DNA from: a virus
Length of the DNA stretch: 64,000 bases
Virus record (IMG/VR): IMGVR_UViG_2786546475_000019
Coordinates: 974 to 64,973 of that record
Strand: one strand, 5' to 3'
Positions 1 to 25,567 of this stretch are shown one piece after another. Each line of letters starts with the position of its first letter. The stretch's first letter is position 1. The translations under genes and the position numbers were made by a program. Under the pieces are notes generated by a model, which was not told the DNA's origin, did not search any database, and was given only the letters and a program-made list of their open reading frames with translations.

Positions 1-100
1 AAGGACCATGGACCAAGGACAAAATGATAAATCTGGAACTGGACCCCGGACCCGGACAGGCCGACCAAGGACCGTGGACCGTGGACCATGTTGACAGCAC
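1..100. repeat. Tandem GGACC heptad arrays (ggaccat ggaccaa; ggacccc ggacccg; ggaccgt ggaccgt ggaccat)
   Basis: Direct reading shows GGACCNN repeated in three short arrays at 3-20, 41-57 and 69-90. Confidence 0.7.
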
Positions 101-219
101 CTAACATGTTCGCCATCTTTGGTCGGCCTGTCCGCCCCAGCAAAAAGCCGGTTGATGTTTTGCCGCCCCAGGTGAAGGCCGGTTGTTGGGAGGTCGATCC
201 AGGTTATCATGTGGGTGTT

Positions 220-257: not shown

Positions 258-360
258 AACACCCCCCTGAAAGTGGGGTGTGCGGTATCGCACACCCCCT
301 GAAAGTGGGGTGTGCGATACCGCACGTGCGGAACCGCACAGTGAGCGGTATCGCTCAGCT
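258..360. repeat. Two tandem ~33-bp units (acacccc-ctgaaagt-ggggtgt-gcggtatcgc), each forming a hairpin, followed by two short palindromes (gtgcggaaccgcac, gagcggtatcgctc)
   Basis: Direct repeat with internal stems. GCGGTATCGC occurs three times, once inverted. Confidence 0.7.
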
Positions 361-404: not shown

Positions 405-739
405 ATGATAGATCGGCGATTTTGCCTAAATCCAAGGCATCGCTGCCCACGGTATAGGCACAAGGATATTAGACGGTAAAAACCGACATATTGTGAGCTT
501 TCCAGATCGCTTTCCCGAAAACTAAGTGTCCAGTAACTATTTCAAAGTATTTTCACGCGGGGAAAACCGATGAATGGGAGCCGCAGACAGCGTGCCTAAA
601 ATTCAGGCAGGTATAATTGGGGCGTTCCAAGCGAACACGGGCAAGCCAAGCCAAATTCGGCACGCTTGTCAAGTTCCACGGGACTCGCTACACTGTATGC
701 TGTAGCGTTTGATCTTTGACAATTTGGTTTCTAGTTGGC

Positions 740-792
740 GGTTAAACTCGCTACGCGGTCCAAATATCGCGGACCACGTAGCGAGTTTAACC
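740..792 (+). promoter_or_regulatory. Long hairpin with a 16-bp outer stem (ggttaaactcgctacg / cgtagcgagtttaacc) and an inner GGTCC/GGACC stem, in the 5' region of ORF 856
   Basis: Perfect 16-bp inverted repeat seen directly. Confidence 0.6.
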
Positions 793-793
793 G

Positions 794-855: not shown

Positions 856-2217
856 ATGTCACAAGAATCTAAACTTACCTCTGTTTTGTCGCTGCATTTC
901 GATTTTGACGCGAAGTCTTTACTTTGCGGCATGAATCCCGGTTCAGATCGATACTTGACGCCAAACCCGGTTCAATCGCTAGTAGATAGCTTATTTGCTG
1001 GTTGGAATAGCCAGGAAAGCTTGAAAGCCATCACTAATGGCAATCTCGCTAAAATCGATCCGCGATTCACTAAAGCGGACGACGTAGCTAGTTTCGCTGC
1101 TAAACAGCGTCAAACTTTCCGTTCTGAATTCAGACCGGGGACAGACTTGTGGGCAGCTCTTTGCGGCAAGTCTGACAAGTTCATCGCCATTGGACCAGCA
1201 CCTGCAAAGGGGCAGCCTGATGAACGTTTAAAGATTCCCGTTGAATCGATCTACGCGGTCCTTAATCTTTGGTGCGGTACCAAAGCGAATGGCATGACCG
1301 TATCGGGCAACAGGCGTATGCTTGCGCTACTGTTTGTTCTGGCCCTTGAATATGCGGAAGCATTCGCGGAAGCATTAGGGGCAGGGAAAACGAACGAAGA
1401 CGCGGAAGCTGTTGCTAAAAAGACAGTGAAAGCTCATCGGATTCCCGTAGTATTCAAATCGTGGGACACGTTCCAAGATTTGACTAGCGAGCAAATTGCG
1501 GACAATGAACGGGTTCACCAGTCCAACTATACGGAATTGGATCAGGTACGTTTGGCCGTTAAGATCAAACGCGAAGACTGGGGACTGTCCAAGCGGGATA
1601 TCGCTCGACAGATTCCGGGTTTGCGGACCGTAGCCAAAAAGACTGGCGAACTACGCATTAACCAGCGTAGGGCGTCCAATGCAACGGATCGTGCCGATCT
1701 TGTCATCTATGCCGATGACGGGCTGGATATGAACGTCATGGACCGGTTGACCACGGACAACGTAGAAAGCTACGTTGAAGGTGGACCGATTCCAGTGAAA
1801 CGGATCGCTTTCGAACACGTTCCCTTCCTCATCGACGCTACCAAAGAGTACAGCAGTACCCACGCTGCTATTCTTAAAGCGGTTTACCCTGATGCTGTTT
1901 TCAGTGAAGGGGAGGCTATTGGCATCGATGCCGATTCTAAAGCTTTGGAACGCTATTTTCGGTATATTATCGAACATAGCGGTTCAGCGAAACAAGCTTT
2001 GACGATCAAGCAATTACGCGATGCGATCACAAAAATTCCGTCGTCCAAAGACGTGGAAGTATCGCTACGCAAGCTGTACGAAGTGATTGCCGCTGGCGAT
2101 CCAAACGCACTAGCGTTACCAGCTTTGAAAGCTTCAGCGTGGGCCACAATTGTGGATCGCGAAGCGGAAGCGGAAGCGGAAGCGGAAGCGGAAGCGGAAG
2201 CGGAATCCGCCAACTAG
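856..2217 (+). CDS. Hypothetical protein, 453 aa, C-terminal (EA)7 repeat
   Basis: Long ORF with an RBS (aaggaatacc) 8 nt upstream. No recognisable motifs. It is isolated between repeat-rich non-coding regions. Confidence 0.55.
   Translation: MSQESKLTSVLSLHFDFDAKSLLCGMNPGSDRYLTPNPVQSLVDSLFAGWNSQESLKAITNGNLAKIDPRFTKADDVASFAAKQRQTFRSEFRPGTDLWAALCGKSDKFIAIGPAPAKGQPDERLKIPVESIYAVLNLWCGTKANGMTVSGNRRMLALLFVLALEYAEAFAEALGAGKTNEDAEAVAKKTVKAHRIPVVFKSWDTFQDLTSEQIADNERVHQSNYTELDQVRLAVKIKREDWGLSKRDIARQIPGLRTVAKKTGELRINQRRASNATDRADLVIYADDGLDMNVMDRLTTDNVESYVEGGPIPVKRIAFEHVPFLIDATKEYSSTHAAILKAVYPDAVFSEGEAIGIDADSKALERYFRYIIEHSGSAKQALTIKQLRDAITKIPSSKDVEVSLRKLYEVIAAGDPNALALPALKASAWATIVDREAEAEAEAEAEAEAESAN
2150..2198 (+). 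repeat. (GAAGCG)x7 hexanucleotide tandem repeat encoding (EA)n at the C-terminus of ORF 856..2217
   Basis: Seen directly. Confidence 0.9.
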
Positions 2218-2267
2218 AAACCCTTAGCCGCGGACCGGTCCAATTTGGACCGGTCTATTTTTATGCC

Positions 2268-2334
2268 CTTGGAATATCAACTAGCTGCACGCAATATCAA
2301 ATAGCTGCACGCAATATCAACTAGCTGCACGCAA
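2268..2334. repeat. About 3.3 tandem copies of a 20-bp unit, (c/a)tagctgcacgcaatatcaa, i.e. iteron-like
   Basis: Direct reading. Copies start at 2281, 2301 and 2321, with a partial copy before. Confidence 0.8.
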
Positions 2335-2436
2335 ACCCGGTAGGGGTTTATCACAAGTCGTTGCACCCAGGAACAATACCGGGGTCCGTCGCCCTTAACG
2401 CGACGACACAAGCATGATATTTTGTGCCACGGTCCC

Positions 2437-2521
2437 CGGACCTAGCTACTCGGACCTAGCTACTCGGACCATGCACCCTGATCCACGGACCATGATCCAC
2501 GGACCACGGACCAAGCTACTT
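2437..2521. repeat. GGACC-rich repeat block: ggacctagctactc x2 and tccacggacc(a) x3
   Basis: Direct reading. Confidence 0.75.
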
Positions 2522-2565
2522 AGGCCAAAACACAATGATACTGGGGTAGGGGTTCAGAATCCGCC

Positions 2566-2577
2566 GGTCCGTGGACC
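2566..2577. promoter_or_regulatory. GGTCCGTGGACC 12-mer, identical to 50177-50188. Candidate protein-binding site
   Basis: Exact 12-mer recurrence. Related ggaccgtggacc occurs twice at 69-86. Confidence 0.5.
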
Positions 2578-2687
2578 AAAGAACTTCATTAACGTTTCCT
2601 CTGAAAATTATTTTCTGAATTTTTTCAGAATTAGGGGCAATCCGTCCTGCCCTCATTCGTATCTATAGGGAAGTCCACCTACTGATA

Positions 2688-3257
2688 ATGATAATGACAA
2701 GAAAACTTTATCCAGCATTACCTGATCACCCTGAGTACCGTTGCAAGTCCACGGCTCAAAACAAACATTGTACGTTTCTATCATGTGACGGACTTCGCAA
2801 ACTGAATCTGTACGACGATCCAAGGCAATCTGATAAATGTCCCAAGCACGCCGGACGACCACCAAGTAAACAAACAGCTTTGGCAAAGTACATGGACACC
2901 CATCCTCATGAGGTGGGTTATCATTTGCCGGACCAAGCACCAAAGGTGCATTCCCAATCCCGAAGTGTCGCCGAAGAACTTCACATTCTCCGCACACTTC
3001 TTCAAAACACCCTGAACCAATGCAATACGTCGCTCGACTTACTCGCTAACACTGAGCGAATGACAGTCTTAAGTGATAAGATTGCTAACTTGATAAAAAC
3101 TGACGTATTCCTCGAAGAAAAAACAAAGAACTCCTTGACGCGGGACCAAATCATGGCCGTGCTCTCGGAGATACAACAAGTGATAACTCGGCATTGTTCG
3201 CCGGAGCAGGTCGCACTGATCCGTCAAGACTTCCAAGAACTAACCATTCCTGACTAA
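2688..3257 (+). CDS. Hypothetical Cys/His-rich protein, possibly zinc-binding. First gene of the long + strand operon
   Basis: ORF of 189 aa. N-terminal CxxxxxxxxCxxxxC...CPKH pattern. Confidence 0.4.
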   Translation: MIMTRKLYPALPDHPEYRCKSTAQNKHCTFLSCDGLRKLNLYDDPRQSDKCPKHAGRPPSKQTALAKYMDTHPHEVGYHLPDQAPKVHSQSRSVAEELHILRTLLQNTLNQCNTSLDLLANTERMTVLSDKIANLIKTDVFLEEKTKNSLTRDQIMAVLSEIQQVITRHCSPEQVALIRQDFQELTIPD

Positions 3258-3268
3258 CCTCAGTTACT

Positions 3269-3574
3269 ATGCCAAGTCACATAAATCCAAATCGCATCAA
3301 ATCAGAGACGATGTTCGCCGGAGCACAGAACATCAACATTATCACTACGGAATCCAGCGTCACGCTCCGTGCTCCAGATGATACAACTCAATCGCTCACG
3401 CCAACCGGAACCCATCCAAATAAAGTAATCTCAGCAACCCTCGATCAAGCAGGTTTCTACACCGTAGACGGTCACATTGGAAAAGTCCTTGTGCTTGTTT
3501 CCACTTATGATGAAACCTACGGAGCTGCTTACAGAGGAACGGGACTCACCCCAGTAGTAGGCCAAGACGCCTAA
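3269..3574 (+). CDS. Hypothetical protein
   Basis: ORF of 101 aa in the operon context. Confidence 0.35.
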   Translation: MPSHINPNRIKSETMFAGAQNINIITTESSVTLRAPDDTTQSLTPTGTHPNKVISATLDQAGFYTVDGHIGKVLVLVSTYDETYGAAYRGTGLTPVVGQDA

Positions 3575-3585
3575 CCAAACAAACC

Positions 3586-5217
3586 ATGTCATACGCAGAC
3601 GAAACAACAGCAAAAGCAGCCGTAGCAAATGCCATTGGCAACGCAACAAGCGTCGATCCAGTGAGCAATACGGAACATGCTGACGTTCTTGATAATTTGA
3701 TCGAGAACATCTTCGCCGCTGATGGTATCACTGTGTATTTCGCCGAACCTCTGTCGGGACTTGGCGATGACGGCGACGTCACAATCTACGAAAACAAAAT
3801 CTACTCGAAAGCTGCCGGAACATGGTCCGAGGAACTTGAATTAACAAGCTGGACTTTCAATACTGCTGATCCTCCCACGTCCACGTCTCACACTTATGCA
3901 ATCTCGACAACCGGCCAATTATACGTAAACGTCGCCGGAACATGGACCTTGCAGCAGTTATCATTAGGCAAATACAAAGGTGCTCACTCAACCACCACAA
4001 AGTATTACGCCAATGATATTATCCTCTACTCAGGGGAATTGCAGTACGCTAACAGCACGCACAATCCTAAGACATATGACGCCGCAGACTGGACTTCGCT
4101 ACCTACTGCGTCATCAACCCACGTACTCCACGATGATATCTCAACACTTCCTTCCTCCCCGGACGGTTACACGCTTGAACTATATGACGGGATCGGCGAG
4201 GGGATGCTCTTTGAGCGGGTATCAAGTGCGTGGGTTTACCGAACACAGACAACAACTCCAGTTGTTGACCTAACCTCTGGCAACGCTTCAACGATTGCAG
4301 CATATTTGTCCGCTGGTCAAATATATCGGTACAATTTAACGACAGGCGAACCATACTACGTTGATAACGCCGGAGCACGGACCTCGCTTCCTCCAATCCA
4401 AACCGCCGTAACAGCCCTACCGTCAATTGTAGACGGTCCCGATCTATTGGTTTGGACCACGGACCCTGACGGGCATCGAGCGTACTTTAAAGGAGCTTCC
4501 GCGTACCAGAAGCTCCCACTTGTCCCAAGTATCCAAGAGTCCGATCAATCACTTTCGGAGAATCGGGAACTAGCGTACAACGCCCGAACACTATCATTCG
4601 ACGGTGACGGCACATTCCGCTTCGGAGACTTAAGCGACAACACCGACGGATATTATGCGGCCTTCAACTCCGGTGCGTTACAGTGGGCCAATGCTACACC
4701 GGAAACGAACCTCACGTCCATCACCCCTACCATTGTCAATTCGCAAAACCTAGCTCTGGTAAACGACGGCACTAGCAACAGTTTCACGTTGAAATACGCA
4801 GGAAGCCAAGATCAAGACTTTACGTTTCCAGCAGATCTTCCAGCTTTAGGTAATATTCTGGAAGTCACGGGCCTTGCAACAAGTTCCATTGTAGTAGGCT
4901 GGCGTAAGCCCGTAAAAGACTGGTTCACGCTAACCTCAGCCACCCCAACTGTGACAGTTGACGGCAATGATAGCAAACGCTTTAAACTTGACCCTGGGCA
5001 CACTCCAATTACAATTGCTTTCACTAATTGTGAGCAACATGATTTTGTTCTCCTCAAGATACGAGGTCACGCTACAAACTCAGTGTCAATGCCTGCCGGA
5101 GCAGACGGTGACGTTTTCTCTCTTAGTACGGATGATACAAAAGCAACTTTAGTCACAGCTATCATTGATGGTTCCGCCATCCATCTTGGCGTAATGAGGG
5201 ACGTATCATGGGCTTAG
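3586..5217 (+). CDS. Putative tail fibre or structural protein (543 aa, Thr/Ser/Asn-rich)
   Basis: Large ORF. The composition is typical of fibre proteins. It lies adjacent to a beta-helix protein. Confidence 0.4.
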   Translation: MSYADETTAKAAVANAIGNATSVDPVSNTEHADVLDNLIENIFAADGITVYFAEPLSGLGDDGDVTIYENKIYSKAAGTWSEELELTSWTFNTADPPTSTSHTYAISTTGQLYVNVAGTWTLQQLSLGKYKGAHSTTTKYYANDIILYSGELQYANSTHNPKTYDAADWTSLPTASSTHVLHDDISTLPSSPDGYTLELYDGIGEGMLFERVSSAWVYRTQTTTPVVDLTSGNASTIAAYLSAGQIYRYNLTTGEPYYVDNAGARTSLPPIQTAVTALPSIVDGPDLLVWTTDPDGHRAYFKGASAYQKLPLVPSIQESDQSLSENRELAYNARTLSFDGDGTFRFGDLSDNTDGYYAAFNSGALQWANATPETNLTSITPTIVNSQNLALVNDGTSNSFTLKYAGSQDQDFTFPADLPALGNILEVTGLATSSIVVGWRKPVKDWFTLTSATPTVTVDGNDSKRFKLDPGHTPITIAFTNCEQHDFVLLKIRGHATNSVSMPAGADGDVFSLSTDDTKATLVTAIIDGSAIHLGVMRDVSWA

Positions 5218-7058
5218 GATTAGGATTAAACATGGGCTTGTTTCCTTTACCATCGGTTAAAGCAACATTGGACAACCGTCCTTTGTTCACGTCGCTTGCA
5301 TTTTTGCAATGGCGTCGCGATATAGTAACTGCAAAAGAACGCCCCACGTATTGGATCCCTCAAACAGAGTATTACGTCAGTGAATCGACCGGTAACGACG
5401 CTAACGCTGGAACAGAAGTCGCCCCTTGGCAAACACTTGAAAAAGCTCAACAAGTTCTTGACGCTTTGTCTGATGAATCGTATACCGTTATACGGCTCAA
5501 ACGTGGTGATACTTGGGAAGAAGAAGGAACTGTTTTAGCGGTAGACGGAAACTCGTGCTTACTGCGACTGACAAAGACGTTCAGCGGGATCAGTTCTTAC
5601 GGGTCCGGTGACCTGCCGTTTATCAATCAATTTGCTACCAAATACACGTCGGGTTGGACTGTTCACAGTGGGAACGTCTACGTCCGATCGGAAGCCAATG
5701 ATATTGTTAGCGTTCGGCTAACAACTGATCGCCTTGTACCTTTTTACGACGCCACAGACGCTACAGATTGTGCTACCGATATTGCTGACACAAACGGCTC
5801 ATATTTTTATGATGCGACTGGCAACAACTTATATGTCAACCTTGGCGGTACTGATCCGAATACAGTAACGATTGAAGCTGCAATTTCTAATGATGACACA
5901 GTTGAAGCGGTAGCACATGGTTGTTTCATCGAGAACATTCGGCTCGACGGCACGTTAAAAAGAACAACAAGGGACGAGCAGGCGGGTATCCGTTTAAATA
6001 TCAATGGCAGTGAAGTCGCAAGAATCGAGAACTGTGAAGCGTATTATGGTTCGTCTCACCTGATACACCAGAACGGTTTAACCGGGACTGGCGGCATCGG
6101 TATTATCAAGAATTGCAAAGCTGGCTATTCGCTCTGGAATACTGGCGGAAACACGATTTTCAATTCATACACATTAGGCGGCGATCAAGAGACTTATGTC
6201 CAAGACTGCGAGGTTCCTTATGGAACATTACCAGGTCACGAGTGGACGTCGACTAACTCAGCACACGATGCTTTAGATGGTTCAGCGTTTTATTGTCATG
6301 CTGGTGGCGGGGCAAACACTGGGTTTATCCTCGTCGATGGGATGAAGTGCGACCATGATAACGCTTGGGGTCCGCAAGAAGGGTCTTACAATGGTAGTGC
6401 TCCAGCAGCAGCAACAATCGAAGACGCCAAGGTAGTTGTCTTCGGAGAGGTCGTAGATAACAGCCGACTTGGGTTGCGATGTTTCCGATTATCACCTGCG
6501 AACGGAGTTGGAATTTGCAACACGTACACAGGAGGCTACGGCACCGATAGAAATTACCGAGCACTTTCAGCAACAAACCAAAGCGGCTTTATGTTTAATT
6601 GTCGCTTCGACGTTTCTCTCCCTGCTGGACTATTTAACGCTCACGGATTCTGGAACGGTTCTGGAACGTCAAATGTAAGCTGGTTCTTTAACCGTTTTAT
6701 CCAACGAGCTTCTCACGGATCGCATGATCTTGCGTTTAATTATGACTCCGTTTCTACATGGCCTGACAGCACGCTTTACAACAACGTTATCGCTCGCGTT
6801 GGAACCTATGATAACTCGGTCGCTATGTATAACGGCACTCCCGATTCCAACAACAATGCTCTGTATCAATTCAAAGGGGCGAACGCAGGAGCAAACTCAA
6901 TTGACATTACAACCGAGGCCGAAGCGGTTCAAGACACAGCAAATGTTGATACTTACGGTACATGGGAAGCTGCAAATACAGCAATCGGAGTTGTGCCTGA
7001 GTACGACAGGCTTCTGAACCCGCGAACAGCAACAACAAGCATTGGAGATTTGGCGTAA
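5208..7058 (+). CDS. Putative right-handed beta-helix (pectate-lyase-fold) tailspike/depolymerase-like protein
   Basis: 616 aa. The N-terminal ESTGNDANAGT...PWQTLEKA region, many G-x-N/D/T repeats and low-complexity Asn/Gly-rich segments suggest beta-helix. Confidence 0.45.
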   Translation: MGLGLGLNMGLFPLPSVKATLDNRPLFTSLAFLQWRRDIVTAKERPTYWIPQTEYYVSESTGNDANAGTEVAPWQTLEKAQQVLDALSDESYTVIRLKRGDTWEEEGTVLAVDGNSCLLRLTKTFSGISSYGSGDLPFINQFATKYTSGWTVHSGNVYVRSEANDIVSVRLTTDRLVPFYDATDATDCATDIADTNGSYFYDATGNNLYVNLGGTDPNTVTIEAAISNDDTVEAVAHGCFIENIRLDGTLKRTTRDEQAGIRLNINGSEVARIENCEAYYGSSHLIHQNGLTGTGGIGIIKNCKAGYSLWNTGGNTIFNSYTLGGDQETYVQDCEVPYGTLPGHEWTSTNSAHDALDGSAFYCHAGGGANTGFILVDGMKCDHDNAWGPQEGSYNGSAPAAATIEDAKVVVFGEVVDNSRLGLRCFRLSPANGVGICNTYTGGYGTDRNYRALSATNQSGFMFNCRFDVSLPAGLFNAHGFWNGSGTSNVSWFFNRFIQRASHGSHDLAFNYDSVSTWPDSTLYNNVIARVGTYDNSVAMYNGTPDSNNNALYQFKGANAGANSIDITTEAEAVQDTANVDTYGTWEAANTAIGVVPEYDRLLNPRTATTSIGDLA

Positions 7059-7309
7059 TGCTACTAAACATAACTGATAAACACGGTGTCACTGTGGGTG
7101 TTGTTGAAGCAGACACCTTGGAGAAAGCTTCCAAGCTCGCAAGAGATCACGTCACCAAGTTGGTAGATCCTCCTGCTCCTGACGGCACTCCAGGCATGAA
7201 GTACCCTAAGACTGAAAGCTCTGATTTGTTCATCGCATTCTTCCGAGAAGAAACTGATAAGCGACCAATATTGAAATTCAAATTCAAGCCACTTGATGTG
7301 ATCAAGTAG
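7058..7309 (+). CDS. Hypothetical protein
   Basis: ORF of 83 aa, start coupled to the upstream stop. Confidence 0.35.
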   Translation: MLLNITDKHGVTVGVVEADTLEKASKLARDHVTKLVDPPAPDGTPGMKYPKTESSDLFIAFFREETDKRPILKFKFKPLDVIK

Positions 7310-7320
7310 TTAATAGACCA

Positions 7321-8034
7321 ATGAAAGAAATTTTAGATTCACTATCACTAATCGGGCTGTTTGTGCTATCCATCGTAACGATCATGCATTTCGTACAGCT
7401 TGACAATCGAGGCGAGTGGATGCGACAAGTGCAAGAAAATTTTGACTACGGACAGCGATGCAGCTTGCACGATTTGAAGCAAACCATCAAAGCAAACAAT
7501 TTAATAGAGCCTGATTTTGCACCGCGTCCTCCAGTCCCTGAACCGTTTTGGCGAGAAACTACAACGTCTGCAAAATCAGACACCTGCCCACATTGTAATG
7601 TACCAATGAGATTTTTTGATTGTGTTGGAACCGTTCGGGCGTGGCGTATTATCATCGCACATTCTCTGATCAGTGCGATGTATCTGGGTATTGCGTTTTT
7701 CCGTTTTCTTCCGGCTGGAATGGAAGCACGAACGCAAACGGAACGAGTTGTTTGGTATTCGCTCGCGTTTATCTTCCCGTTTTGCTGGGCTGCGGGATAC
7801 GGGACGACGATACTCGCCGGCTGGTTTCCTGCTTTGGCGTACTTTTTGAAAGAATCAGCGTGCTACGTTGACGCTGCATTTTGTGTTACTTTTCTATGGT
7901 CGACGCGAAATCAAAATTTGGTTTCGGTTACTGTTGATAGTTTTCGAGACGAAATTGAAGACATTGTCAACAACGAAGACTCTGACTTATCTCACGGCGA
8001 CCGCATTCAGCAGATTCGAGACTCTTTGCAATGA
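7321..8034 (+). CDS. Multi-pass membrane protein with a CPHC...C zinc-ribbon-like loop
   Basis: 4-5 hydrophobic helices visible (LSLIGLFVLSIVTIM, IIIAHSLISAMYLGIAFF, VVWYSLAFIFPFCWAAGYGTTILAGWF, etc.). Confidence 0.5.
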   Translation: MKEILDSLSLIGLFVLSIVTIMHFVQLDNRGEWMRQVQENFDYGQRCSLHDLKQTIKANNLIEPDFAPRPPVPEPFWRETTTSAKSDTCPHCNVPMRFFDCVGTVRAWRIIIAHSLISAMYLGIAFFRFLPAGMEARTQTERVVWYSLAFIFPFCWAAGYGTTILAGWFPALAYFLKESACYVDAAFCVTFLWSTRNQNLVSVTVDSFRDEIEDIVNNEDSDLSHGDRIQQIRDSLQ

Positions 8035-8408
8035 ATATCTGGCTCTTGATGCAAGAATCGACAGCCCCTGGAATGCCTGCATGGGTGGGGTTCGTCACTG
8101 GTACGGGAGGTGGTCTAGTGATGGCAATTTTCGGACTGATTGCGTTGTGGAAGCGAATGATCTTCAAGGAAACACAGTACGAAAAACGGCTCGAAACGAA
8201 AGACAAAGAAGTCAATCAAATCGGGCGAGAGTTCGTTGAACTATCGATAAAGATGTTGGAACGGGACGAAAAAAACCGGGAAAACGATAAGGCAATCCGC
8301 GATGGTTTCGACAGACTAATTGAGCACGTTAAAACCGACTCACTTAAAATGGAGAATTGGCGGAAAGAGGTGGATCGAATATTGGCACAGCTGGTACCCC
8401 GTAAGTAA
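8031..8408 (+). CDS. N-terminally membrane-anchored coiled-coil protein (i-spanin-like architecture)
   Basis: TM segment WVGFVTGTGGGLVMAIFGLIALW, then a charged heptad-like region. Confidence 0.4.
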   Translation: MNIWLLMQESTAPGMPAWVGFVTGTGGGLVMAIFGLIALWKRMIFKETQYEKRLETKDKEVNQIGREFVELSIKMLERDEKNRENDKAIRDGFDRLIEHVKTDSLKMENWRKEVDRILAQLVPRK

Positions 8409-8430
8409 AACGCAAAACAAAAGAGAACAA

Positions 8431-9531
8431 ATGACGAATTTAAGAACCCTGCTGCTGCTTCTAACAATTGTTGTTTTTCCGTCCATTTGTATCGGACAAG
8501 AGGGTCCAGATATCACTCAATGGCTGAAAGACAAGATCGCGAACCACGAACCTATCAAGTTGGAGCGTGGCGATTACTTCATTACAGAAACGATCAAGCT
8601 TCCAGGCAAGTACGGATCTTCGATTGAGGGTGTCGGTGTGGCTGCTGCTCACTTGTCTTCTGCAAACCCATACAATTGGCAGTCGACACGCATCTTCTGG
8701 CGTGGTGAACCGAATGAAGCCATGTTTCGGGCAGATGGATCGAATCAAACATTTAAAAACCTCACTCTTGTCGGCAAGCCAAGCTACAACGGCTCGACAG
8801 TTGAGGGCGTCGTCGGCGTGAAAGTCTTAAAAGCTCGCGGGCTTGGAACAGGCAAGCATCGATTCGAAAGTGTTTGGTTCCAGAACTTACACTACGGAAC
8901 ACAATGGGGTGAGTCTGCTACAGGGGCAGGTGCAAATTGCGACGAATCGTATTTTGACTCTTGTACATTCATGCAATGCCATTCAGCGACACGGTACGAG
9001 CACAGCCAAGCACTCGGCTTTACGTACATGAATTGTGTCTATAAGCAAGTTGAACGGTGTCATGATATTCAAGCCGGTGGGCATATCACAGCGTACAAGT
9101 GTTTCGTATCACAACCACCAAGCGGCAAGAAAGTTAACTTCTTTCACTTCACCGATGAAGCACAACGACGATATCGTATTGGAACATCGGCTGGAATGAT
9201 CACAGCTTACAATCTTAAGGTGGATTATCAATCAAAAGAAAACTTCCGAGCAGTCTGGATGGACAGCGACGTGAACGGTGTAACGATCACGTTCCGAGAT
9301 TGCCAAGTATCATTCACGGACTACGGCAAGGAACTATTCATCAAGGCAGGTGGTCCTGCAAAGATCGTCATTGATAACTGTCGCTTTCCCGGATATACAA
9401 CCTCACGCTACCAATTGAATACAGATGATCGTGGATTGACGCCAACGATGCAACGACCAACGATGGAATATATTCCACGAGCGATCGATACGGACCCTGT
9501 TCCTTCACCTACACCTATCGGACAAGGCTAA
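8431..9531 (+). CDS. Secreted protein with a signal peptide and beta-helix-like repeats
   Basis: Start refined to MTNLRTLLLLLTIVVFPSICIG (the ORF-track start at 8320 lies inside the upstream gene). Shows a GDYFITETIKL pattern. Confidence 0.45.
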   Translation: MTNLRTLLLLLTIVVFPSICIGQEGPDITQWLKDKIANHEPIKLERGDYFITETIKLPGKYGSSIEGVGVAAAHLSSANPYNWQSTRIFWRGEPNEAMFRADGSNQTFKNLTLVGKPSYNGSTVEGVVGVKVLKARGLGTGKHRFESVWFQNLHYGTQWGESATGAGANCDESYFDSCTFMQCHSATRYEHSQALGFTYMNCVYKQVERCHDIQAGGHITAYKCFVSQPPSGKKVNFFHFTDEAQRRYRIGTSAGMITAYNLKVDYQSKENFRAVWMDSDVNGVTITFRDCQVSFTDYGKELFIKAGGPAKIVIDNCRFPGYTTSRYQLNTDDRGLTPTMQRPTMEYIPRAIDTDPVPSPTPIGQG

Positions 9532-10265
9532 TGGATTGGACTGTAGCTGTAACTGCTTTAATTGCTTCTTTGCTTGGTTCCGGGGCTACTGGTGGTGCGA
9601 TTGCTGCGTACTTCAAATTTCGTACAAACCAGCAAGCTGTAAAATATGAACAGCAAGAAGTGTTATTCAAACAGATAATGGAGAACGCGAACCGAGCAAC
9701 GGCAAGAGTTGATATCTTGCTCAACGAACTTGCGAAACGCGACGAAGCCATCACTGAACGCAACACTAAAATTGGACAGCTCCAAAACGAAGTTCACGCC
9801 CTATCCGAAAAGGTCGATCGGCTCCGCAAGCAGATTAAACAAATGGAGTCTAACCGAATAGCCTACGACACCATGCACGTAGTCGAAGGTATGATGGACA
9901 CGTTCCCGTTCCCAGCTTGGCTACACTCAGTTGGCGAGAATAAATGGTACGTCAACGACGCATATTGCAAAGCATTTGGAATACACCGCGACACGTTCTG
10001 GCAAGGGGTAAACATCTTGGCGATGTACCCCGCTGAAATTGCGGCAAAGTACGTTCAACATGATATGAAAGTGGTAGAGTCCAATATGGGTTCGCTGTTT
10101 ACCGAGCAAGTCAGCAAAAACGTGATGCAACACGATCCACAATCTGAATTTGAGTGTGACATTTACAAGATGCCAATTGTAGCAGGCGGGAAAAGATACA
10201 TTTTCGGGCTGGCAAAGCTTGGGCATGACGTATGGGGCAACAAACTAGCAACTATTTCAGACTAA
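9531..10265 (+). CDS. Membrane-anchored protein with a coiled coil plus a PAS-like C-terminal domain
   Basis: N-terminal TM (VAVTALIASLLGSGATGGAIAAYF), heptad region, then a C-terminal region with PAS-like features. Confidence 0.4.
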   Translation: MDWTVAVTALIASLLGSGATGGAIAAYFKFRTNQQAVKYEQQEVLFKQIMENANRATARVDILLNELAKRDEAITERNTKIGQLQNEVHALSEKVDRLRKQIKQMESNRIAYDTMHVVEGMMDTFPFPAWLHSVGENKWYVNDAYCKAFGIHRDTFWQGVNILAMYPAEIAAKYVQHDMKVVESNMGSLFTEQVSKNVMQHDPQSEFECDIYKMPIVAGGKRYIFGLAKLGHDVWGNKLATISD

Positions 10266-10274
10266 GGTGATAAA

Positions 10275-10526
10275 ATGAATACCGTTATTATGGGGGTAAC
10301 AGTTAGTTGGAAAACTACTGTTGCTGCAATTCTTTCCTCTCTGGCTGCTATTTTTATGGTGCTAGCTGCTTATTTTGATGGCGACCCAGCCACGATCCCT
10401 AATTGGGAAACTGCAGCAATTGCCGTGTTGGCAATCGGCCAAATGATTATTGGGGTTTTTACTAAGGACAATGATAAGTCCACTGAAGACCATAAACTTC
10501 CTCGTAAACGATTGAGGACAAAATAA
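10275..10526 (+). CDS. Holin-like small membrane protein (2 TM, charged C-terminus)
   Basis: 83 aa, two hydrophobic helices, KLPRKRLRTK tail. Confidence 0.4.
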   Translation: MNTVIMGVTVSWKTTVAAILSSLAAIFMVLAAYFDGDPATIPNWETAAIAVLAIGQMIIGVFTKDNDKSTEDHKLPRKRLRTK

Positions 10527-11554
10527 TGGCTACTACCAAAACATTACTTCAAGGCTTTGACGGGCGGGAAGACTTTCGTGATATGCTTCGCGAAATGCGA
10601 ACGGCTGCCCTTCGGTCTTGGGACATTACTCTTGCAATACGTATTCGCAAAGTTCTTCGAAACAATAAACTGTTTGAAAAAGTCTACGACCATGCAACTG
10701 TAACTTCGGCTCAAGCTCTACTTGATAGTCCACGGCTCTCGGAATTTGGCGATGGGGAGTTTGGCAAATGGTTCCTCGATTGGTTCAAGAACGGTGGGGC
10801 TCAAGCTATCATTGAGTTCATTCGAGCATTGCTCCCGTTGTTTGGAGCTTTTATGAGCGTTCTGTTACCGCTTCTTATCACTTTGTCTTTGTGTGCCACG
10901 GCCCAAGGTCAAAGTATCAAAGGAGCCGAAACTGCTAAACCGGGATCGCTCGTTGTCTTAACGCCGGTGGATGCTGACGATGTTCGAACAGTTTGGAACT
11001 TGAATTACCCCGAACAATTCGAGGAGTATGCAGAAGAAAACGGCAAGCTTTTCATTGCAATGCCGTCAAAAACAATTTCGTTTTCACTTCTGGTGATTCC
11101 AAACGATACAACACTCCCAATTCGTAACCTACGTCATACAGTTTCTCCGTCTGACGCTCCAGTGGTTCCGGGCCCCGGTCCTGATCCAGTAGTGCCGAAA
11201 CCTCCAGAGATTGACGTAACTCAATCTCCAATTTATCAATTTGTCAAGAACAGTTTTGAGAGTATCCCGGACCCTAATAAGCGAGAAAGGGCCGGTAAGC
11301 TTGCAAAATCCTTTGGCATCATTTGTGCTCAAATCAAGAATAAAGAAATTACAACAGTCAACGACCTCTTGACTGATATTCGAGAGGCTAACCTGAAAGA
11401 TTGGCCCGAAGACTCTAGGCAACTGTGGACCTCTTTCCGTAACGGTATGGCTCGCCAGTTTGATACTTTGGAAGACGCTGGGGAGTTGGAGACCGTTGAC
11501 GATTTCTACCTTCATTTGAAAGCAATTCAAGTCGCTCTTGAGGAGTCAGTTTAA
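10526..11554 (+). CDS. Hypothetical protein with a central TM segment and a Pro-rich linker
   Basis: ORF of 342 aa. LLPLFGAFMSVLLPLLITLSLCATAQG looks like an internal signal or anchor. Confidence 0.4.
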   Translation: MATTKTLLQGFDGREDFRDMLREMRTAALRSWDITLAIRIRKVLRNNKLFEKVYDHATVTSAQALLDSPRLSEFGDGEFGKWFLDWFKNGGAQAIIEFIRALLPLFGAFMSVLLPLLITLSLCATAQGQSIKGAETAKPGSLVVLTPVDADDVRTVWNLNYPEQFEEYAEENGKLFIAMPSKTISFSLLVIPNDTTLPIRNLRHTVSPSDAPVVPGPGPDPVVPKPPEIDVTQSPIYQFVKNSFESIPDPNKRERAGKLAKSFGIICAQIKNKEITTVNDLLTDIREANLKDWPEDSRQLWTSFRNGMARQFDTLEDAGELETVDDFYLHLKAIQVALEESV

Positions 11555-12492
11555 TGTACCCAATTCGTAGATTACCCGACGACCTTATCGTCAGTGAAGG
11601 GTTAACAGCTAAACAAATCAAAAGACAAGACGTTGGCTGGGATGAAATTGATCTCCAGCTTGATAAAGCTTTTGGCCGAGAAAATGAAAACCGATGCCCG
11701 ATTTTTATTGCAGACACCGGTCTTCCTGAACATCCAGATATTCCTAAAGCCCAAGAAGCTTGGAATTTTACCGACGACCCTTCTGTTGTGGATTTGAACT
11801 TCCACAGCACTTGGATCAATGGTAAGATGACGGCGTACAACAATGATATTGGGTACGAAGGTATTTGCCCTGAGGATACTCCAGTATTCATACTTAAAGT
11901 CTTGAACAATCAGGGTTCTGGTTGGCGTATGCTTCAAGCAATGCGTAAAGCGTTAGATTTCTGGGTCAACCATCCTAAACGTCGCTCAGGGGAGTGGGTT
12001 GCGGCAGTTTATAATATGAGTTACGGGGGTGGCGGCTATTCACAAGATGAACAAATTTTGTTTAAGGATATGATAAAAGAGAACATTCTTCCGTTTGCTG
12101 CCAGCGGCAATGAAGGACGTTCGGCTCCCTCATTCCCTGCGAAATATGAAGGAGTTCTATCAGTTGGAGCTTATGACCCTCAACGAGAGAAAGCAAGCTT
12201 TACTAATTACGGCCCGTGGACTGATTTTGTTGCTCCCGGCGTCAACGTCCCTTCCACAATCGGCAAAAACAAGTACGGCCCATATAGTGGGACGTCAATG
12301 GCTTGCCCAATTAAAGCAGCGTGTGCCGCTAATTTTATCAGCTCTCGCCCTAATGATAAATGGATGCATGATGTTCCAGGTTATCAAGAAGCTGTACAAC
12401 CGTATATGGAGAATCTGCCCGGCACTTGGGATGGAGACGGAGTATTCCTTCCCGCAAAAGGAACAGTTCGCAACAAATACTTTTTCTGGTAA
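11554..12492 (+). CDS. Subtilisin-like serine peptidase (S8 family), no signal peptide
   Basis: Motifs: IADTGL (Asp), HST...KVLNNQGSG (His region), ASGNEG (Asn oxyanion), GTSMACP (Ser). Confidence 0.65.
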   Translation: MYPIRRLPDDLIVSEGLTAKQIKRQDVGWDEIDLQLDKAFGRENENRCPIFIADTGLPEHPDIPKAQEAWNFTDDPSVVDLNFHSTWINGKMTAYNNDIGYEGICPEDTPVFILKVLNNQGSGWRMLQAMRKALDFWVNHPKRRSGEWVAAVYNMSYGGGGYSQDEQILFKDMIKENILPFAASGNEGRSAPSFPAKYEGVLSVGAYDPQREKASFTNYGPWTDFVAPGVNVPSTIGKNKYGPYSGTSMACPIKAACAANFISSRPNDKWMHDVPGYQEAVQPYMENLPGTWDGDGVFLPAKGTVRNKYFFW

Positions 12493-12503
12493 AGGAGATC
12501 CCA

Positions 12504-12961
12504 TGAGATCACTACTATTATCAATGCTGACTTTGTCACTTGTTTGTTTTATTTCGTCTATTGGAACAGCAAGCACTCCGCTTACGTTTCAAGACGCTTT
12601 CAACCCCTGCCCTAACGGAGTGTGTCCAACTCCAGTACAAGGCGTCACGGTTCGCAAACCTTTGCTTCGCCCACAAACCACGATCTATGAAGCTTGGGAC
12701 GCGACACAAGGAGTTGTTCAATATTCCCAACCAGTGATAATTTCACAAGGAGTTGTTGAACAATTCACCGCCCCAGTCCAAGAGGTTATGACTACGGAAG
12801 TCGTTTACGAGTACACAACTTTATCAAACGCCATGTACTCGCAATGTGCGACTGCCAATATGGCAGTCGATATTCAACGACGGCGACGTAACTTGGTAAC
12901 GGCGTGGCGACAAAGACCTGGACTATTTGGATGGCGTAAACGACGAGGGCTATGTCAATGA
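12504..12961 (+). CDS. Small secreted protein (signal peptide, basic C-terminus)
   Basis: Start refined to MRSLLLSMLTLSLVCFISSIGTAS. The ORF-track frame 12095.. overlaps the protease gene. Confidence 0.45.
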
Positions 12962-13218
12962 ATCCAGTAGCTCACACCCTTCGATTGATATCAGTGACAG
13001 CAACAGCCGAAACTCTTAAGAGCCAAAACGATTTGTTCCACGGAGCTTCGGAAATTCGAGTGACCCCTGCTGCTGATATTACAATGAAGGATTTGCAGAC
13101 GGGAGCTTCTGTTACATTAACTTCCGGCCAAACACATTCCCTACCTGCCGCTAACGTTGCGACAGAATTTCAATTCACCACAAGTGGAGCCGAAGTGTTC
13201 CAAGTTTACTCCGCATGA
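12952..13218 (+). CDS. Hypothetical protein immediately upstream of the terminase. Not an obvious small terminase subunit
   Basis: 88 aa, start/stop coupled (atga) with the next gene. Confidence 0.3.
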   Translation: MSMNPVAHTLRLISVTATAETLKSQNDLFHGASEIRVTPAADITMKDLQTGASVTLTSGQTHSLPAANVATEFQFTTSGAEVFQVYSA

Positions 13219-14894
13219 TAACTGAACTGTTTGACCATTTAGCCGAAAGCTTAACCCACAGCACAATCACAAATTGTGCTCAGTGGGCGTTAGAGCGTAG
13301 GGTTATGGGACGACCGTTCGAGGGCCCATGGAATTTTAAATTATTTCCGTGGTTATACACTCCGCACGTTTCCAACCATCCATTTCGGTTGGCATTGAAA
13401 GGTGCTCAATTAGGGTTTACAGAGTGGGCAATTAACGAAGCTTTTTACGCTATTGATCATAAGCGTTCAAATGTTTTATATTGTCTGCCTACAAAGGGCA
13501 ACGCGGGTGACTTTTCAACCACCCGCTTCAACCCTGCCCTAGCCCTTAGCCCCTATATCGCGAACTTGTTCTCTGGTGCAGATAATGTATCATTGAAGAC
13601 GGCAGGTTCTCGGTCACTGTATATTAGGGGTTCAAAGGCTAGAGCAGACTTGAAGTCTTTGCCAATTACTGTTTTGATACTTGACGAAATTGATGAAATG
13701 CCTAAAGAGTCAATCTCTCTAGCTCATCATCGTCTTGATGGACAAGCCGTAGGTTCAACTTCATTGCTTGAATTATCAACTCCTACTCTACCTGATATGG
13801 GGATTGACGCTGAGTACAAATTATCAAACCAGATGATTTACGTATTCCAGTGCCCAGGATGTAGCAAGTATATTGACTTGCAATACCCTAGGAATTTTAA
13901 GCTAACTGCTACGCGAATGAACGATCCTGACATTGAAAAGAGTTATTTCTTTTGTCACGAGTGTGATTACGTAATAGACCACGAAGCCAAACCAGAGATT
14001 TTTAAATGCAAGGAAATGGGCGGCACGGGTCACTACAGACCGCAAGTAAAATATGCTGACCGAGAAGGGTACTATGTAAATCAAATGTACTCCTCGGCCA
14101 AAGGCGGAACGCCAATTGAGTGGGCTAAAGCCGTAATACTTGCAGAAACAAATCCGTCAAAAGAACAAGAGCTTTGGAACTCTAAAGTTGGTAAAGGCCA
14201 TGCAACAGAGAACGCAAAGCTAGAAGAAGGAGTCTTAGAGCAGCATAAGCGAAACTACACTATTGCCGACTACGAACTCCATGATAATCGTATTAGAACA
14301 ATTGGGTGTGATGTTGGAGCAGTTTGCGATTTAGTGTGCTTAGAGTGGACGTGGGAGTCTGATCTTGGCCTGCCTAATGATAGATACCGTCCTCGACTGG
14401 TAGGTGAATTATCATTGCCCCGATCTTCGGAAGATGCCCGAGCCATTTTGGACTACTTCCGAAAGATGAACGCTCATATGTTTGTTATGGATTCCGAACC
14501 TGAAAGTCGTTTTGCTCGACAAGTCATCAATTTGCTAGGCGACTATGGGTTCATGTGTGATTATGGGAAAGGATACAAAGCAGGACAAGTTAATGTTAAA
14601 GAAGAAGATGGCTTTATCACTGTAAATCGAACTACATGGTTGGATATAACTATGTCTCGATTCACAGCTGCTAACAAAGACGGAACAGATTTACCTAGCG
14701 ACATAAGCGAACGATTCCTTCAACATATGACAGCCCCTGCTAGATATTACAAAGATGATGCAAATGGCGACCCCATAGCTATTTACAAAAATGAAAAAGC
14801 GGATCACTTGTTTCATGCGTGGACCTACGCTGAGATAGGATTGCCTCTTTACTTCCTAACAGCCGAAGGCGAAGATATCGATGTTATCTTTTAG
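13215..14894 (+). CDS. Terminase large subunit (GpA-like family)
   Basis: ALKGAQLGFTEW Walker-A-like, VLILDEIDEMP Walker B, CPGC...CHEC zinc motif. It sits before the portal gene. Confidence 0.6.
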   Translation: MITELFDHLAESLTHSTITNCAQWALERRVMGRPFEGPWNFKLFPWLYTPHVSNHPFRLALKGAQLGFTEWAINEAFYAIDHKRSNVLYCLPTKGNAGDFSTTRFNPALALSPYIANLFSGADNVSLKTAGSRSLYIRGSKARADLKSLPITVLILDEIDEMPKESISLAHHRLDGQAVGSTSLLELSTPTLPDMGIDAEYKLSNQMIYVFQCPGCSKYIDLQYPRNFKLTATRMNDPDIEKSYFFCHECDYVIDHEAKPEIFKCKEMGGTGHYRPQVKYADREGYYVNQMYSSAKGGTPIEWAKAVILAETNPSKEQELWNSKVGKGHATENAKLEEGVLEQHKRNYTIADYELHDNRIRTIGCDVGAVCDLVCLEWTWESDLGLPNDRYRPRLVGELSLPRSSEDARAILDYFRKMNAHMFVMDSEPESRFARQVINLLGDYGFMCDYGKGYKAGQVNVKEEDGFITVNRTTWLDITMSRFTAANKDGTDLPSDISERFLQHMTAPARYYKDDANGDPIAIYKNEKADHLFHAWTYAEIGLPLYFLTAEGEDIDVIF

Positions 14895-16407
14895 AAACAC
14901 TTCCGACTCGTTCAACTTTGATTTGAATATTACCAAATGGTATGAAGCTTATTATGGCGGGTATCAATTCATTGATAAATATCTGTACCAACAATCAAGC
15001 GAAAAGACAACTGAATTTGAGATACGTAAAAAGATTGCGTACAACCCTCCAGTATTGCAAAACGAGGTAGATCGTATTTTAAGAGCCGTCCAAGAACGTT
15101 TGCACTTGGTCAAACGGCGTAACGGCTCTCGAACCTATCAACAAATGGTAGCAGGAGAGAACGGCGGAGTAGATTATTTTGAGACCAACATGAATTTGTT
15201 TATGGCGGATCAAGTTCTACTTCACTTACTGATAGGCGGCGGGTGTGGAATCTTTATTGATAATTACGGCCCCGAAGATTTAACGTTTGAAGGGAACACT
15301 CACCCGTTCCTTCGAGTAGTTCCTCGTTACAAAATCACGCAAATGGAATACGGAGCTAATCGACAATTTGATAAAGTTTGTTTTGAAAATTTCAAATTTG
15401 AACGAGATTCAGACGGTCAACTTTGGTACACAGTTTACGACACGGACCCCGAAAAAGAGAAAGAGATCGATACACAAGGCCAATTGGAACTAAGCCGTAT
15501 TCCTTTTGTGTGGATTGAAATGCCACGACCCTTGTTGCGAGATGCAGCTGATATGCAAATTGCTTTGTTGAACCAACACTCAACTGAGCTTGAGTTCGCT
15601 ACCAAGTACAACTTTCCAATTTATTACGAGTACACGTCTCCTCGCGGTGGCGGAGACGTGCGTGATAAAAATCGAGAAATTGAACTTACCAAAACAAAAG
15701 GACGTAAAGTTAAACAAGGTTCTGGCCCTCCAGGTTATGTTACCCCGCCAACTGAAAATTTGGACGCGTCCATGCGTAAGAGTGAGCAGATCACTCAATT
15801 GATAAAAGACACTATCAATTCGAACATGGAAGAAAATAAAGAGGATGGTCAAAGCGGCTTGTCCTCATTGGGTCGCTTAATGGAGCGAGCGGAAAATGAA
15901 GTAGCCACGCTTCTAGAAGAATATATCAATGAAGGCGGACAAGCAAGAGTTTGTTACCCAAAAGTGTTCACCCTTCAAACGGTTGAAGAACGAACAGCTG
16001 AAGCTGAACTGTTTGAAAAAATGAGCAATTGCGTACCATCCAAAACGTTTCGAATGGTAACGCATAAGCAAAAAGCAGAAACGCTACTTGGCCCTGTTCT
16101 AACTACCGAAGAACTTGATGTTATATTCAAAGAGATCGAAGAAGCTCCGGCTTCGTGTGTAAACCCTGAAATGCTTTTAAAGCTTCTAGAAAAAGGAGCT
16201 TTGACTACTCATTTAGTTAATGAAATTCTTGGGTATCCTGCTGACGAAGCAGATAAAGCTTTGGAGCAACTTGCTGACCGAATGGCCGTCACTGTGGTAG
16301 CTCAAAGCAAAGCTAAAGAAGTTCAAAGTGATAGTTTACCAGACGACGCTCGACAAGCTCAACGCGGCGAGCAAGATGTTCCTAATGATATTGGAGAGCC
16401 TACCTAA
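14881..16407 (+). CDS. Portal protein
   Basis: 508 aa immediately after the terminase, acidic C-terminal region, canonical position. Confidence 0.55.
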   Translation: MLSFRNTSDSFNFDLNITKWYEAYYGGYQFIDKYLYQQSSEKTTEFEIRKKIAYNPPVLQNEVDRILRAVQERLHLVKRRNGSRTYQQMVAGENGGVDYFETNMNLFMADQVLLHLLIGGGCGIFIDNYGPEDLTFEGNTHPFLRVVPRYKITQMEYGANRQFDKVCFENFKFERDSDGQLWYTVYDTDPEKEKEIDTQGQLELSRIPFVWIEMPRPLLRDAADMQIALLNQHSTELEFATKYNFPIYYEYTSPRGGGDVRDKNREIELTKTKGRKVKQGSGPPGYVTPPTENLDASMRKSEQITQLIKDTINSNMEENKEDGQSGLSSLGRLMERAENEVATLLEEYINEGGQARVCYPKVFTLQTVEERTAEAELFEKMSNCVPSKTFRMVTHKQKAETLLGPVLTTEELDVIFKEIEEAPASCVNPEMLLKLLEKGALTTHLVNEILGYPADEADKALEQLADRMAVTVVAQSKAKEVQSDSLPDDARQAQRGEQDVPNDIGEPT

Positions 16408-16859
16408 TGTACGGAACAATTGCAGAAGCTGATATTTATTTCACAACAAAACAATTTGATAACTTGAACGTCTGGCGAGACGCTCTAGACACTGATAAAA
16501 CAATCGCGTTAACTCAAGCCGCTCTACAGATTGATGGTTTGAAATACGCAACGGATACTCCATCTGGCCAAGAACATAAGTTTCCCTTGACGGGCCAAGA
16601 TGCAGTACCTACTAACGTAAAATATGCAGCGTATGAGATTGCTCGTGCGTTGCTATTTGGTGCGGACCCCAATCAAGATGATGAACTTCTTGACGCATCG
16701 GGAATTACTTTAGGAGAAATGCAAGTTTCCAAAGACCTAAAGTATATCTCAAGGGCGAAAGACAATGGAATTTCTTCTGCTGTCGCTTTTAAGTTTTTAT
16801 TACCGTACCTTATCAGTGACGATTACATTGATATTGTACGAGACCAACCCTCTGTTTAG
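16407..16859 (+). CDS. Hypothetical head-morphogenesis protein
   Basis: ORF of 150 aa between portal and scaffold. Confidence 0.35.
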   Translation: MYGTIAEADIYFTTKQFDNLNVWRDALDTDKTIALTQAALQIDGLKYATDTPSGQEHKFPLTGQDAVPTNVKYAAYEIARALLFGADPNQDDELLDASGITLGEMQVSKDLKYISRAKDNGISSAVAFKFLLPYLISDDYIDIVRDQPSV

Positions 16860-16871
16860 AAAGAGAGATTT

Positions 16872-17738: not shown

Positions 17739-17757
17739 ACACTACAGGAGATGAAGT

Positions 17758-21633: not shown

Positions 21634-21641
21634 GGATTGCA

Positions 21642-25564: not shown

Positions 25565-25567
25565 CTC

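Follow-up and report, generated by a model that had tools for sequence, protein, structure and literature searches.

A conserved tandem array of 20-bp two-block repeats, a putative protein-binding element, in an uncultured siphovirus-like marine phage

The short repeated sites of phage packaging signals, such as the R sites of lambda cosB and the pac boxes of SPP1, lie near the terminase genes or at mapped genome ends, and in T7 short repeat arrays adjoin the terminal repeat. Members of the Herelleviridae package genomes with long direct terminal repeats, and their ends are far from the terminase gene. In several satellites and phages the origin of replication follows the gene of its initiator, and the centromere parC of pSK41 consists of four 20-bp repeats. 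Iteron origins are defined by their iterons together with a DUE, often with DnaA boxes as well, and examples are P1 oriR (five repeats of 19 bp), pPS10 (four of 22 bp) and RK2 oriV (PMC4980987). Direct-repeat centromeres that are bound by RHH proteins show cooperative binding of contiguous head-to-tail repeats (PMC3074162), and the centromeres F sopC and P1 parS lie immediately downstream of a gene of the ParB family (PMC2910045). We describe here a tandem array of 20-bp repeats in the genome of a marine phage, and compare it with each of these systems.

The DNA analysed (the window) comprises 64,000 nucleotides of an IMG/VR virus record, and belongs to a genome present as contigs of about 72 kb in Tara Oceans metagenomes, which encode a 453-aa protein adjacent to the array. 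Joining the window with the sequences L002 and L001 gave a circular map of about 72.1 kb. Individual assemblies break at different places, at a 30-bp coding repeat and near 35 kb of the window, and the genome therefore assembles as a circle. Its gene content is that of a tailed phage, and the genome is that of an uncultured siphovirus-like marine phage. In addition to the genes listed in Table 1, it encodes an SNF2-type helicase, a family A DNA polymerase, a ligase, CsrA, a thymidylate synthase and a Dam-type methyltransferase. No integrase, repressor or ParA-type ATPase was seen among precomputed Pfam hits across the genome or in a motif search of the ORFs, and the gene content looks lytic. 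The three ParB-like proteins reported in the first-pass annotation were all found, two of them with ParB_N and HTH domains and the third as a ParB_N match that falls below the Pfam cut-off. No cultured relative was found: a DNA search of 50,697 phage records gave no match, and a tblastn search with the DNA polymerase returned no hit. The coat protein showed at best about 30% identity over half its length, and the terminase was nearest, with about 23% identity, to those of Herelleviridae of the SPO1, Twort and Bastille types. There are three large co-oriented gene blocks, which run from 2688 to 33403 (+), from 58592 to 33580 (-) and from 59360 onward (+).

Table 1. Positions in the window of the array, its neighbours and the genes and elements discussed in the text.
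Feature	Position	Strand	Remarks
453-aa gene, orphan	856..2217	+	upstream of the array
Intrinsic terminator of the 453-aa gene	2232..2264	+	11-bp stem, then T-tract; hairpin 2232..2256, fold z = -3.8
Tandem array	2273..2334	.	three full 20-bp units (2273-2292, 2293-2312, 2313-2332) plus AA
Block A, AATATCAA	2273..2280, 2293-2300, 2313-2320	+	invariant in all units of both lineages
Block B, GCTGCAC	2284..2290, 2304-2310, 2324-2330	+	invariant in both lineages
Possible degenerate extra site, TTTATCAC-AAGTC-GTTGCAC	2347..2366	+	weak call; GTTGCAC at 2360
GGACC short-motif block	2431..2577	.	between the array and promoter-like element P1, about 100 bp past the array
Promoter-like element P1, GGGGCAATCC-N11-ATTCGTATCTATAGGG	2634..2672	+	16 bp upstream of the 189-aa gene
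189-aa gene	2688..3257	+	first gene of the + block 2688..33403
Large terminase (GpA_ATPase)	13215..14894
P22-type coat protein	17758..19122
Tape measure protein	21642..25241
Sigma factor, 216 aa	37586..38236	-	Sigma70_r2 and r4 domains
Weak ParB_N match	41021..41377		below Pfam cut-off
DUF5906 primase-helicase, 870 aa	55980..58592	-
Promoter-like element, second copy	58658..58696	-
Promoter-like element, third copy	59278..59316	+
ParB-like protein (ParB_N+HTH)	59360..60403
ParB-like protein (ParB_N+HTH)	63387 onwards		280 aa in L002

Variable or repetitive stretches were also seen elsewhere in the genome. At 5208..8408, the genes that follow the 543-aa gene encode proteins of 616, 83, 237 and 125 aa, and L006 and L013 carry at the same place genes for 415 (with a faint Laminin_G_3 hit), 241, 98 and 114 aa; this difference looks like that of an exchangeable host-recognition cassette. 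The hexamer GCCGTA is repeated 23.8 times at 51474..51616, within an ORF of 114 aa on the minus strand (51285..51629), and the 10-bp repeat TGCTCCCCTT occurs 3.4 times at 48911..48944, in the intergenic gap 48651..48951.

Analysis of the array with Tandem Repeats Finder gave a period of exactly 20, with 3.1 copies, 95% matches and no indels. The array reads AATATCAACTAGCTGCACGC / AATATCAAATAGCTGCACGC / AATATCAACTAGCTGCACGC / AA, and its unit can be written as AATATCAA-NNN-GCTGCAC-NN, in which two blocks are separated by linkers of 3 and 2 nt. The centre of block B is 10.5 bp from that of the preceding block A and 9.5 bp from that of the next one, a spacing of about one helical turn that places the blocks on almost the same face of the helix. 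No inverted repeat or dyad symmetry is present in the unit, AATATCAANNNGCTGCACNN. Two exact matches to the 19-mer core of the repeat were obtained where chance would give 0.01, and allowing up to three mismatches revealed none elsewhere in the 64 kb; the two-block pattern was likewise confined to the array locus in a search of the 64-kb window. A possible degenerate site just past the array has a spacer that is 2 nt longer, and one mismatch in each block.

The first-pass annotation had described 3.3 copies of the repeat at 2268-2334. The repeat itself was confirmed, but the start had been placed 5 nt too early and the copy number was a slight overcount: the CTTGG that begins at 2268 lies outside the repeat, and the register used was 8 + 20 + 20 + 14 nt. 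The exact 20-bp spacing of the units, reported in the same description, holds, as does the position of the array between the 453-aa gene and the GGACC block, past both the ORF and its terminator hairpin. The array had also been taken to be non-coding on both strands, and this is supported, because the array is longer by one 20-bp unit in some near-identical genomes than in others, and a change of this length, not being divisible by three, would shift a reading frame; the ORFs that overlap the array are short (61 and 44 aa). We considered an RNA element as well. This was rejected for the lack of any match to the array in Rfam and tRNA searches, and for the lack of excess folding on either strand (z = +0.96 and +0.05).

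Look-ups of neighbouring proteins allowed us to retrieve ten assemblies covering the array, and these fall into two lineages. Lineage A consists of the window, with three units, and of L001 and L005, with four; linker 1 reads CTA, ATA, (ATA), CTA along the array and linker 2 is GC throughout. Apart from the additional 20-bp unit and one additional 14-bp GGACC unit, L001 and L005 are nearly identical to the window. Lineage B (L006, L011, L012, L013, L016, L017 and L018) has four units, with ACC, ACC, ATA and GTA as linker 1 and CT, GC, GC and CT as linker 2. The first-pass annotation had proposed an iteron-like array of putative protein-binding sites, had suggested that the repeat be sought in related genomes, and had made its proposal depend on presence and conservation of the repeats in close relatives. 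The proposal stands in this general form, since all 10 related assemblies that were found carry the array, and the manner in which it varies indicates selection on the two blocks.

Differences between the lineages were restricted to 5 of the 20 positions of the unit, the other 15 being constant. None of the 60 block positions differed, compared to 10 of the 20 linker positions (Fisher p = 1.1e-7). The 150 bp upstream of the array, which include the 3' end of the gene and the terminator, showed 26 mismatches and 22 gap columns between the lineages, while in the 370 bp downstream 17 aligned positions (about 5%) differed. At the site of the terminator lineage B has a different hairpin, and the array was kept although the adjoining hairpin had been replaced.

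A functionless minisatellite that arose by replication slippage could account for a copy number that varies by one unit between near-identical genomes, as it does in the adjacent 14-bp repeat, and for a repeat that is restricted to one phage species. However, such an array should not vary so unevenly over its unit, homogenisation by unequal exchange would have wiped out the linker variants too, and the array was retained despite the replacement of the neighbouring terminator. We therefore regard neutral origin as very unlikely. The array is located at the border of a diverged and a conserved segment, and recent shared ancestry could explain a part of the block conservation; it would not explain the 50% divergence of the linkers. 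The contrast between blocks and linkers fits the signature of selection on an asymmetric two-block, putative protein-binding site, and not that of a neutral minisatellite. Searches with the repeat pattern in IMG/VR, JGI metagenome contigs and GTDB genomes gave no match, and on these alignments conservation of the 20-mer is demonstrated within one phage species only. In all, we consider it highly probable that the array is a functional cis element under selection, and that it serves as a putative protein-binding site.

The array begins 9 bp past the T-tract of the terminator of the 453-aa gene. This gene has a match to a sigma-70-like promoter (666..694), a long 5' hairpin and a terminator of its own, and lacks the promoter-like element that is shared by the gene blocks; from this layout, it is probably an independently transcribed, early gene. 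The hairpin in its 5' leader (739..793, 23-bp stem) is very stable (z = -7.5), and the substitutions found in its stem in lineage B give G-U pairs, which suggests that it acts in the RNA. At the other end of the gene, 7.5 copies of GAAGCG (2161..2205) encode a tail of Glu-Ala repeats whose length varies by assembly, giving proteins of 457, 453, 441 or 439 aa. A perfect 16-bp inverted repeat, GGTTTCTAGTTGGCGG / CCGCCAACTAGAAACC at 726..741 and 2207..2222, brackets the gene, and its downstream arm includes the stop codon.

The first-pass annotation had named the 453-aa protein as one possible binder of the repeats. No homology of this protein to DNA-binding proteins was detected. It matched nothing in Pfam, PHROGs, NCBIfam, PADLOC or the PDB, nor in the phage records, and its AlphaFold models were unusable (pLDDT 38 and 41). 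An exhaustive HMMER search of 1.8 billion representatives recovered its own cluster and one distant member, P0002, which is 31% identical to it over about 140 residues (E = 1e-6). Protein-based searches for further relatives of the locus in IMG/VR and in genomes gave nothing, and in JGI there were only three short contigs with little upstream DNA. P0002 is encoded on L007, a sequence of 4.4 kb of which L009 is a variant. There, the P0002 gene is followed by two small genes, a non-coding region of 336 bp and a 197-aa gene, the product of which is a homologue (33% identity) of the 189-aa protein encoded downstream of the array; the genes downstream of the array encode 189, 101 and 543 aa. Proteins of the 189-aa family have a Cys-rich N-terminus with the motif CP[KR]HAGRPP, followed by a helical C-terminus. 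The 453-aa and 189-aa families are thus syntenic in two very distant phages. The non-coding region of L007 contains an 18-mer repeat with dyad character and five irregularly spaced copies of CCCAAGAGCC, with no clear counterpart of the 20-mer. It has stayed upstream of the 189-aa-family gene, and the two extra genes part it from the 453-aa-family gene. Judged from these two layouts, what is conserved in position is a repeat-laden region upstream of the 189-aa-family gene, while the 20-mer itself is species-specific.

A number of other repeats surround the array. GGACC occurs 154 times in the whole window, compared to 81 expected, and in addition to the block that follows the array there is a second one at window 1..90, which continues upstream as L001:841-1054. 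Within these blocks, which flank the region of the 453-aa gene, the motifs are spaced at 7, 14 and 21 bp; the unit that differs by one copy between assemblies is CGGACCTAGCTACT. Arrays of CCCAAGAGCC take the equivalent place in L007 and L009. At window 263..360, we found two copies of a 32-bp repeat and a family of near-palindromes of 16-17 bp, GTGTGCGGTATCGCACA; this array is longer in lineage B, and several assemblies end there or have an N-gap. A motif family, CCGCCCCAAG..AGGTGAT, is present at L001:1-150, 251-410 and 497-655 and at window 132..193, as a 30-bp coding repeat at the 3' end of a 185-aa gene and as non-coding copies of 29 bp. It adjoins a stretch of about 160 bp with 75-80% AT, the only one so strongly AT-rich, and together the two have an origin-like layout. 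The divergent region between the primase and ParB genes (58593..59359) is 100% identical between the lineages and lies near the minimum of the cumulative GC skew. It holds three copies of TCACGCTACACGTA at 59017..59058, repeats of the CGCGTGCTCC type, an AT-rich stretch and the palindrome TTATCATTT-N9-AAATGATAA. An orphan gene surrounded by at least six repeat families, in a novel phage with a sigma factor of its own, makes the wider locus more interesting than the array taken by itself.

The geometry of the array resembles that of plasmid and phage iterons, which are short direct repeats, 17-22 bp long, that occur as a few phased copies at a single locus. The array has three to four contiguous 20-bp units, compared to the minimum of three direct repeats of 17-22 bp in helical phase by which iterons are recognised, and its asymmetric two-block unit would suit binding by a monomer in two successive major grooves. 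The units could therefore be iterons of a replication origin or of an accessory site, at which an initiator, possibly the 453-aa protein or the 870-aa primase-helicase, binds each unit and nucleates replication, an arrangement that would resemble P1 oriR, pPS10 or the ori/crr pair of P4. The location of the array directly downstream of a stand-alone gene with its own promoter and terminator agrees with this, and so do the primase (DUF5906), helicase and family A DNA polymerase of the phage. However, unlike iteron origins, the period is 20 bp and not 21-23 bp, and there is no adjacent AT-rich unwinding element, DnaA box or recognisable Rep gene. The flanks are GC-rich, and in the 4.7-kb region 60-bp windows with at least 72% AT occur only at L001:251-410, 2.8 kb away. 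Neither a match to TTATCCACA with up to one mismatch nor a relaxed DnaA box was found in the 4.7 kb, although the box consensus of the host may differ, and the 453-aa protein matches no Rep family. Of the earlier suggestion that the array is an origin, the iteron geometry thus holds, and the unwinding element and DnaA boxes are missing within about 250 bp. Better candidates are L001:251-655, which is AT-rich and lies by the CCGCCCCAAG family, and 58593..59359, with the GC-skew minimum nearby. That the array is itself part of an origin appears doubtful to us.

Sites for host DNA-binding proteins were looked for in the array. The full IHF consensus was absent and there was no match for CtrA. An IHF-like WATCAA-N4-CTG is present in each unit, but with one mismatch to a consensus that is itself weak; it also fails to account for the GCTGCAC block, and was rejected.

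The first-pass annotation had also suggested a centromere-like site for one of the ParB-like proteins. Centromeres of types Ib, II and III typically consist of contiguous direct repeats, as does the array, and the phage has ParB-domain proteins; a binding protein that coats the repeats, as in pSK41 parC or F sopC, could stabilise a plasmid prophage. The likeness extends to the head-to-tail order of the repeats in the RHH-bound centromeres of pSK41 (parC), R1 (parC), pSM19035 (omega heptads) and pCXC100. These, however, lie just upstream of a parA or parM-parR operon, and the phage has neither such an NTPase nor such an operon. The array is not upstream of any par operon, and the three genes downstream of it and the gene upstream are without NTPase or centromere-binding families. 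No deviant Walker A ParA was found, and no KGGxxK[ST] motif in any ORF of at least 80 aa; actin-like, tubulin-like, integrase and repressor families were all absent from the precomputed Pfam hits for the whole genome. The suggestion of a ParB centromere thus found no support: searches revealed no partner of the ParA, ParM or TubZ type, the unit lacks the dyad that an HTH-ParB dimer would need, and the ParB genes are far from the array, at 41, 59 and 63 kb of the window in a circular map of about 72 kb.

F sopC is found just downstream of sopB, and the array likewise immediately follows a gene at its 3' end, as do sopC and P1 parS. The units of sopC are 43 bp long and include an inverted repeat of 16 bp to which an HTH dimer binds, while the array is without a dyad, and the gene upstream of the array is, unlike theirs, not detectably ParB-like. 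By eye, the 453-aa protein offers GNRR, DNER...E and HTH-like stretches that could be read as those of a ParB, and profile tests reject this reading. In the test of the 453-aa protein the ParB HMM scored 0.5 and -1.9 bits, which is about zero; hhalign against an alignment of 24 ParB sequences gave the 453-aa protein a local hit of 14 columns with a probability of 1.8%, and P0002 a probability of 0.1%; BLASTP of the 453-aa protein against both ParB proteins of the window found nothing. The palindromes of 16-17 bp at 277..360 are a better parS candidate than the 20-mer, and are a putative site for the HTH-ParB proteins. A role of the array in partition is, in our opinion, highly improbable.

The array lies in the only large region of the genome that is non-coding and dense in repeats, which covers about 1.7 kb before the 453-aa gene and 470 bp after it. 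It could therefore be a recognition site for packaging or for genome ends, bound by a small terminase or by an end-processing factor, if the termini are in this region. The affinity of the large terminase to those of the Herelleviridae is in keeping with this, and the GGACC heptad arrays on both sides of the 453-aa gene region recall the repeat arrays by the terminal repeat of T7. Like lambda cosB R sites, SPP1 pac boxes and the T7 repeats, the array combines a number of short repeats, and lies in non-coding DNA where the late region begins. In contrast to lambda cosB and SPP1 pac, it is 10.9 kb from the terminase gene. No small terminase was recognised, with proteins of 189 and 86 aa matching nothing, and the assemblies are circularly permuted and break at different places, such that no end is visible. 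SPAdes coverages in one sample were 4.09 for the region of the 453-aa gene and 2.11 and 3.07 elsewhere, values too noisy to reveal a two-fold repeat. Packaging seems an unlikely function.

The 20-mer array and the 453-aa protein might also form a new pair of iteron and initiator (or end-processing factor), as one module of a control hub with multiple arrays (origin, parS-like palindromes, GGACC heptads and 20-mers) in a marine siphovirus lineage, as yet undescribed, that relies on a sigma factor of its own. We hold this to be quite unlikely.

A different role is suggested by what lies downstream of the array. A 39-bp element, GGGGCAATCC-N11-AYTCGTAKCTATAGGG, also written GGGGCAATCC-N11-A(T/C)TCGTA(T/G)CTATAGGG, occurs exactly three times in the genome. 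Each of the three gene blocks has one copy immediately before its first gene, and an AT-rich stretch comes before every copy. From their conservation and position, these elements are probably promoters read by the phage sigma factor. The array is 300-361 bp upstream of P1. The other two elements face away from each other and have in common the three copies of TCACGCTACACGTA at 59017..59058, which are 220-261 and 321-362 bp upstream of them.

We tentatively favour a role of the array in transcription, as a promoter-specific upstream control element or as an insulator of the block that starts at 2688, because the three blocks share a core promoter and yet should differ in timing, and each has a private repeat at a similar distance. 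With its asymmetric two-block recognition sequence present head to tail in three to four copies, the array would form a docking site, and one protomer, or one protein with two domains, could occupy each 20 bp along nearly one face of the helix, allowing cooperative binding; that a protein binds the array is inferred from the pattern of its conservation. The phage sigma factor would read the same core promoter at all three gene blocks, and at a distance of 220-360 bp upstream each promoter region would have a tandem repeat of its own. For the block that extends from 2688 through the terminase, capsid and tail genes, this private site would be the 20-mer array, which could either time the expression of the block or insulate the block from the 453-aa gene, an early-type gene whose end lies just ahead of the array. 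In L007 the repeat-rich region precedes the 189-aa-family gene without adjoining the 453-aa-family gene, and this is in favour of upstream control. Against it, 300-360 bp is a long distance for operators or activator sites of the bacterial type, with the GGACC block in between, and the parallel with the repeat at 59017..59058 would be just as compatible with a function of both in replication or packaging.

Two other links between the repeat and transcription were considered and dismissed. A sigma-70-like promoter on the minus strand, TTGATA-16-GATATT, is created by the repeat itself and uses block A only, and the region as a whole contained 3 promoter-like matches compared to 3.7 expected in shuffled sequence. 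AATATCAA could have been a member of a motif family enriched in control regions, but TTGATA is not enriched there (1.1-fold); ATGATA is enriched 3-fold.

A short phased repeat in the non-coding DNA of a phage is in itself a familiar feature, and the array is a new instance of it. If bound by a protein, it would define a new recognition sequence, and would provide an entry into the control circuitry of an abundant lineage of uncultured ocean phages in which almost no protein is annotated. Along with the three promoter-like elements and the sigma factor, the array offers a testable model, in which a single core promoter may be timed differently at each gene block by private upstream arrays.
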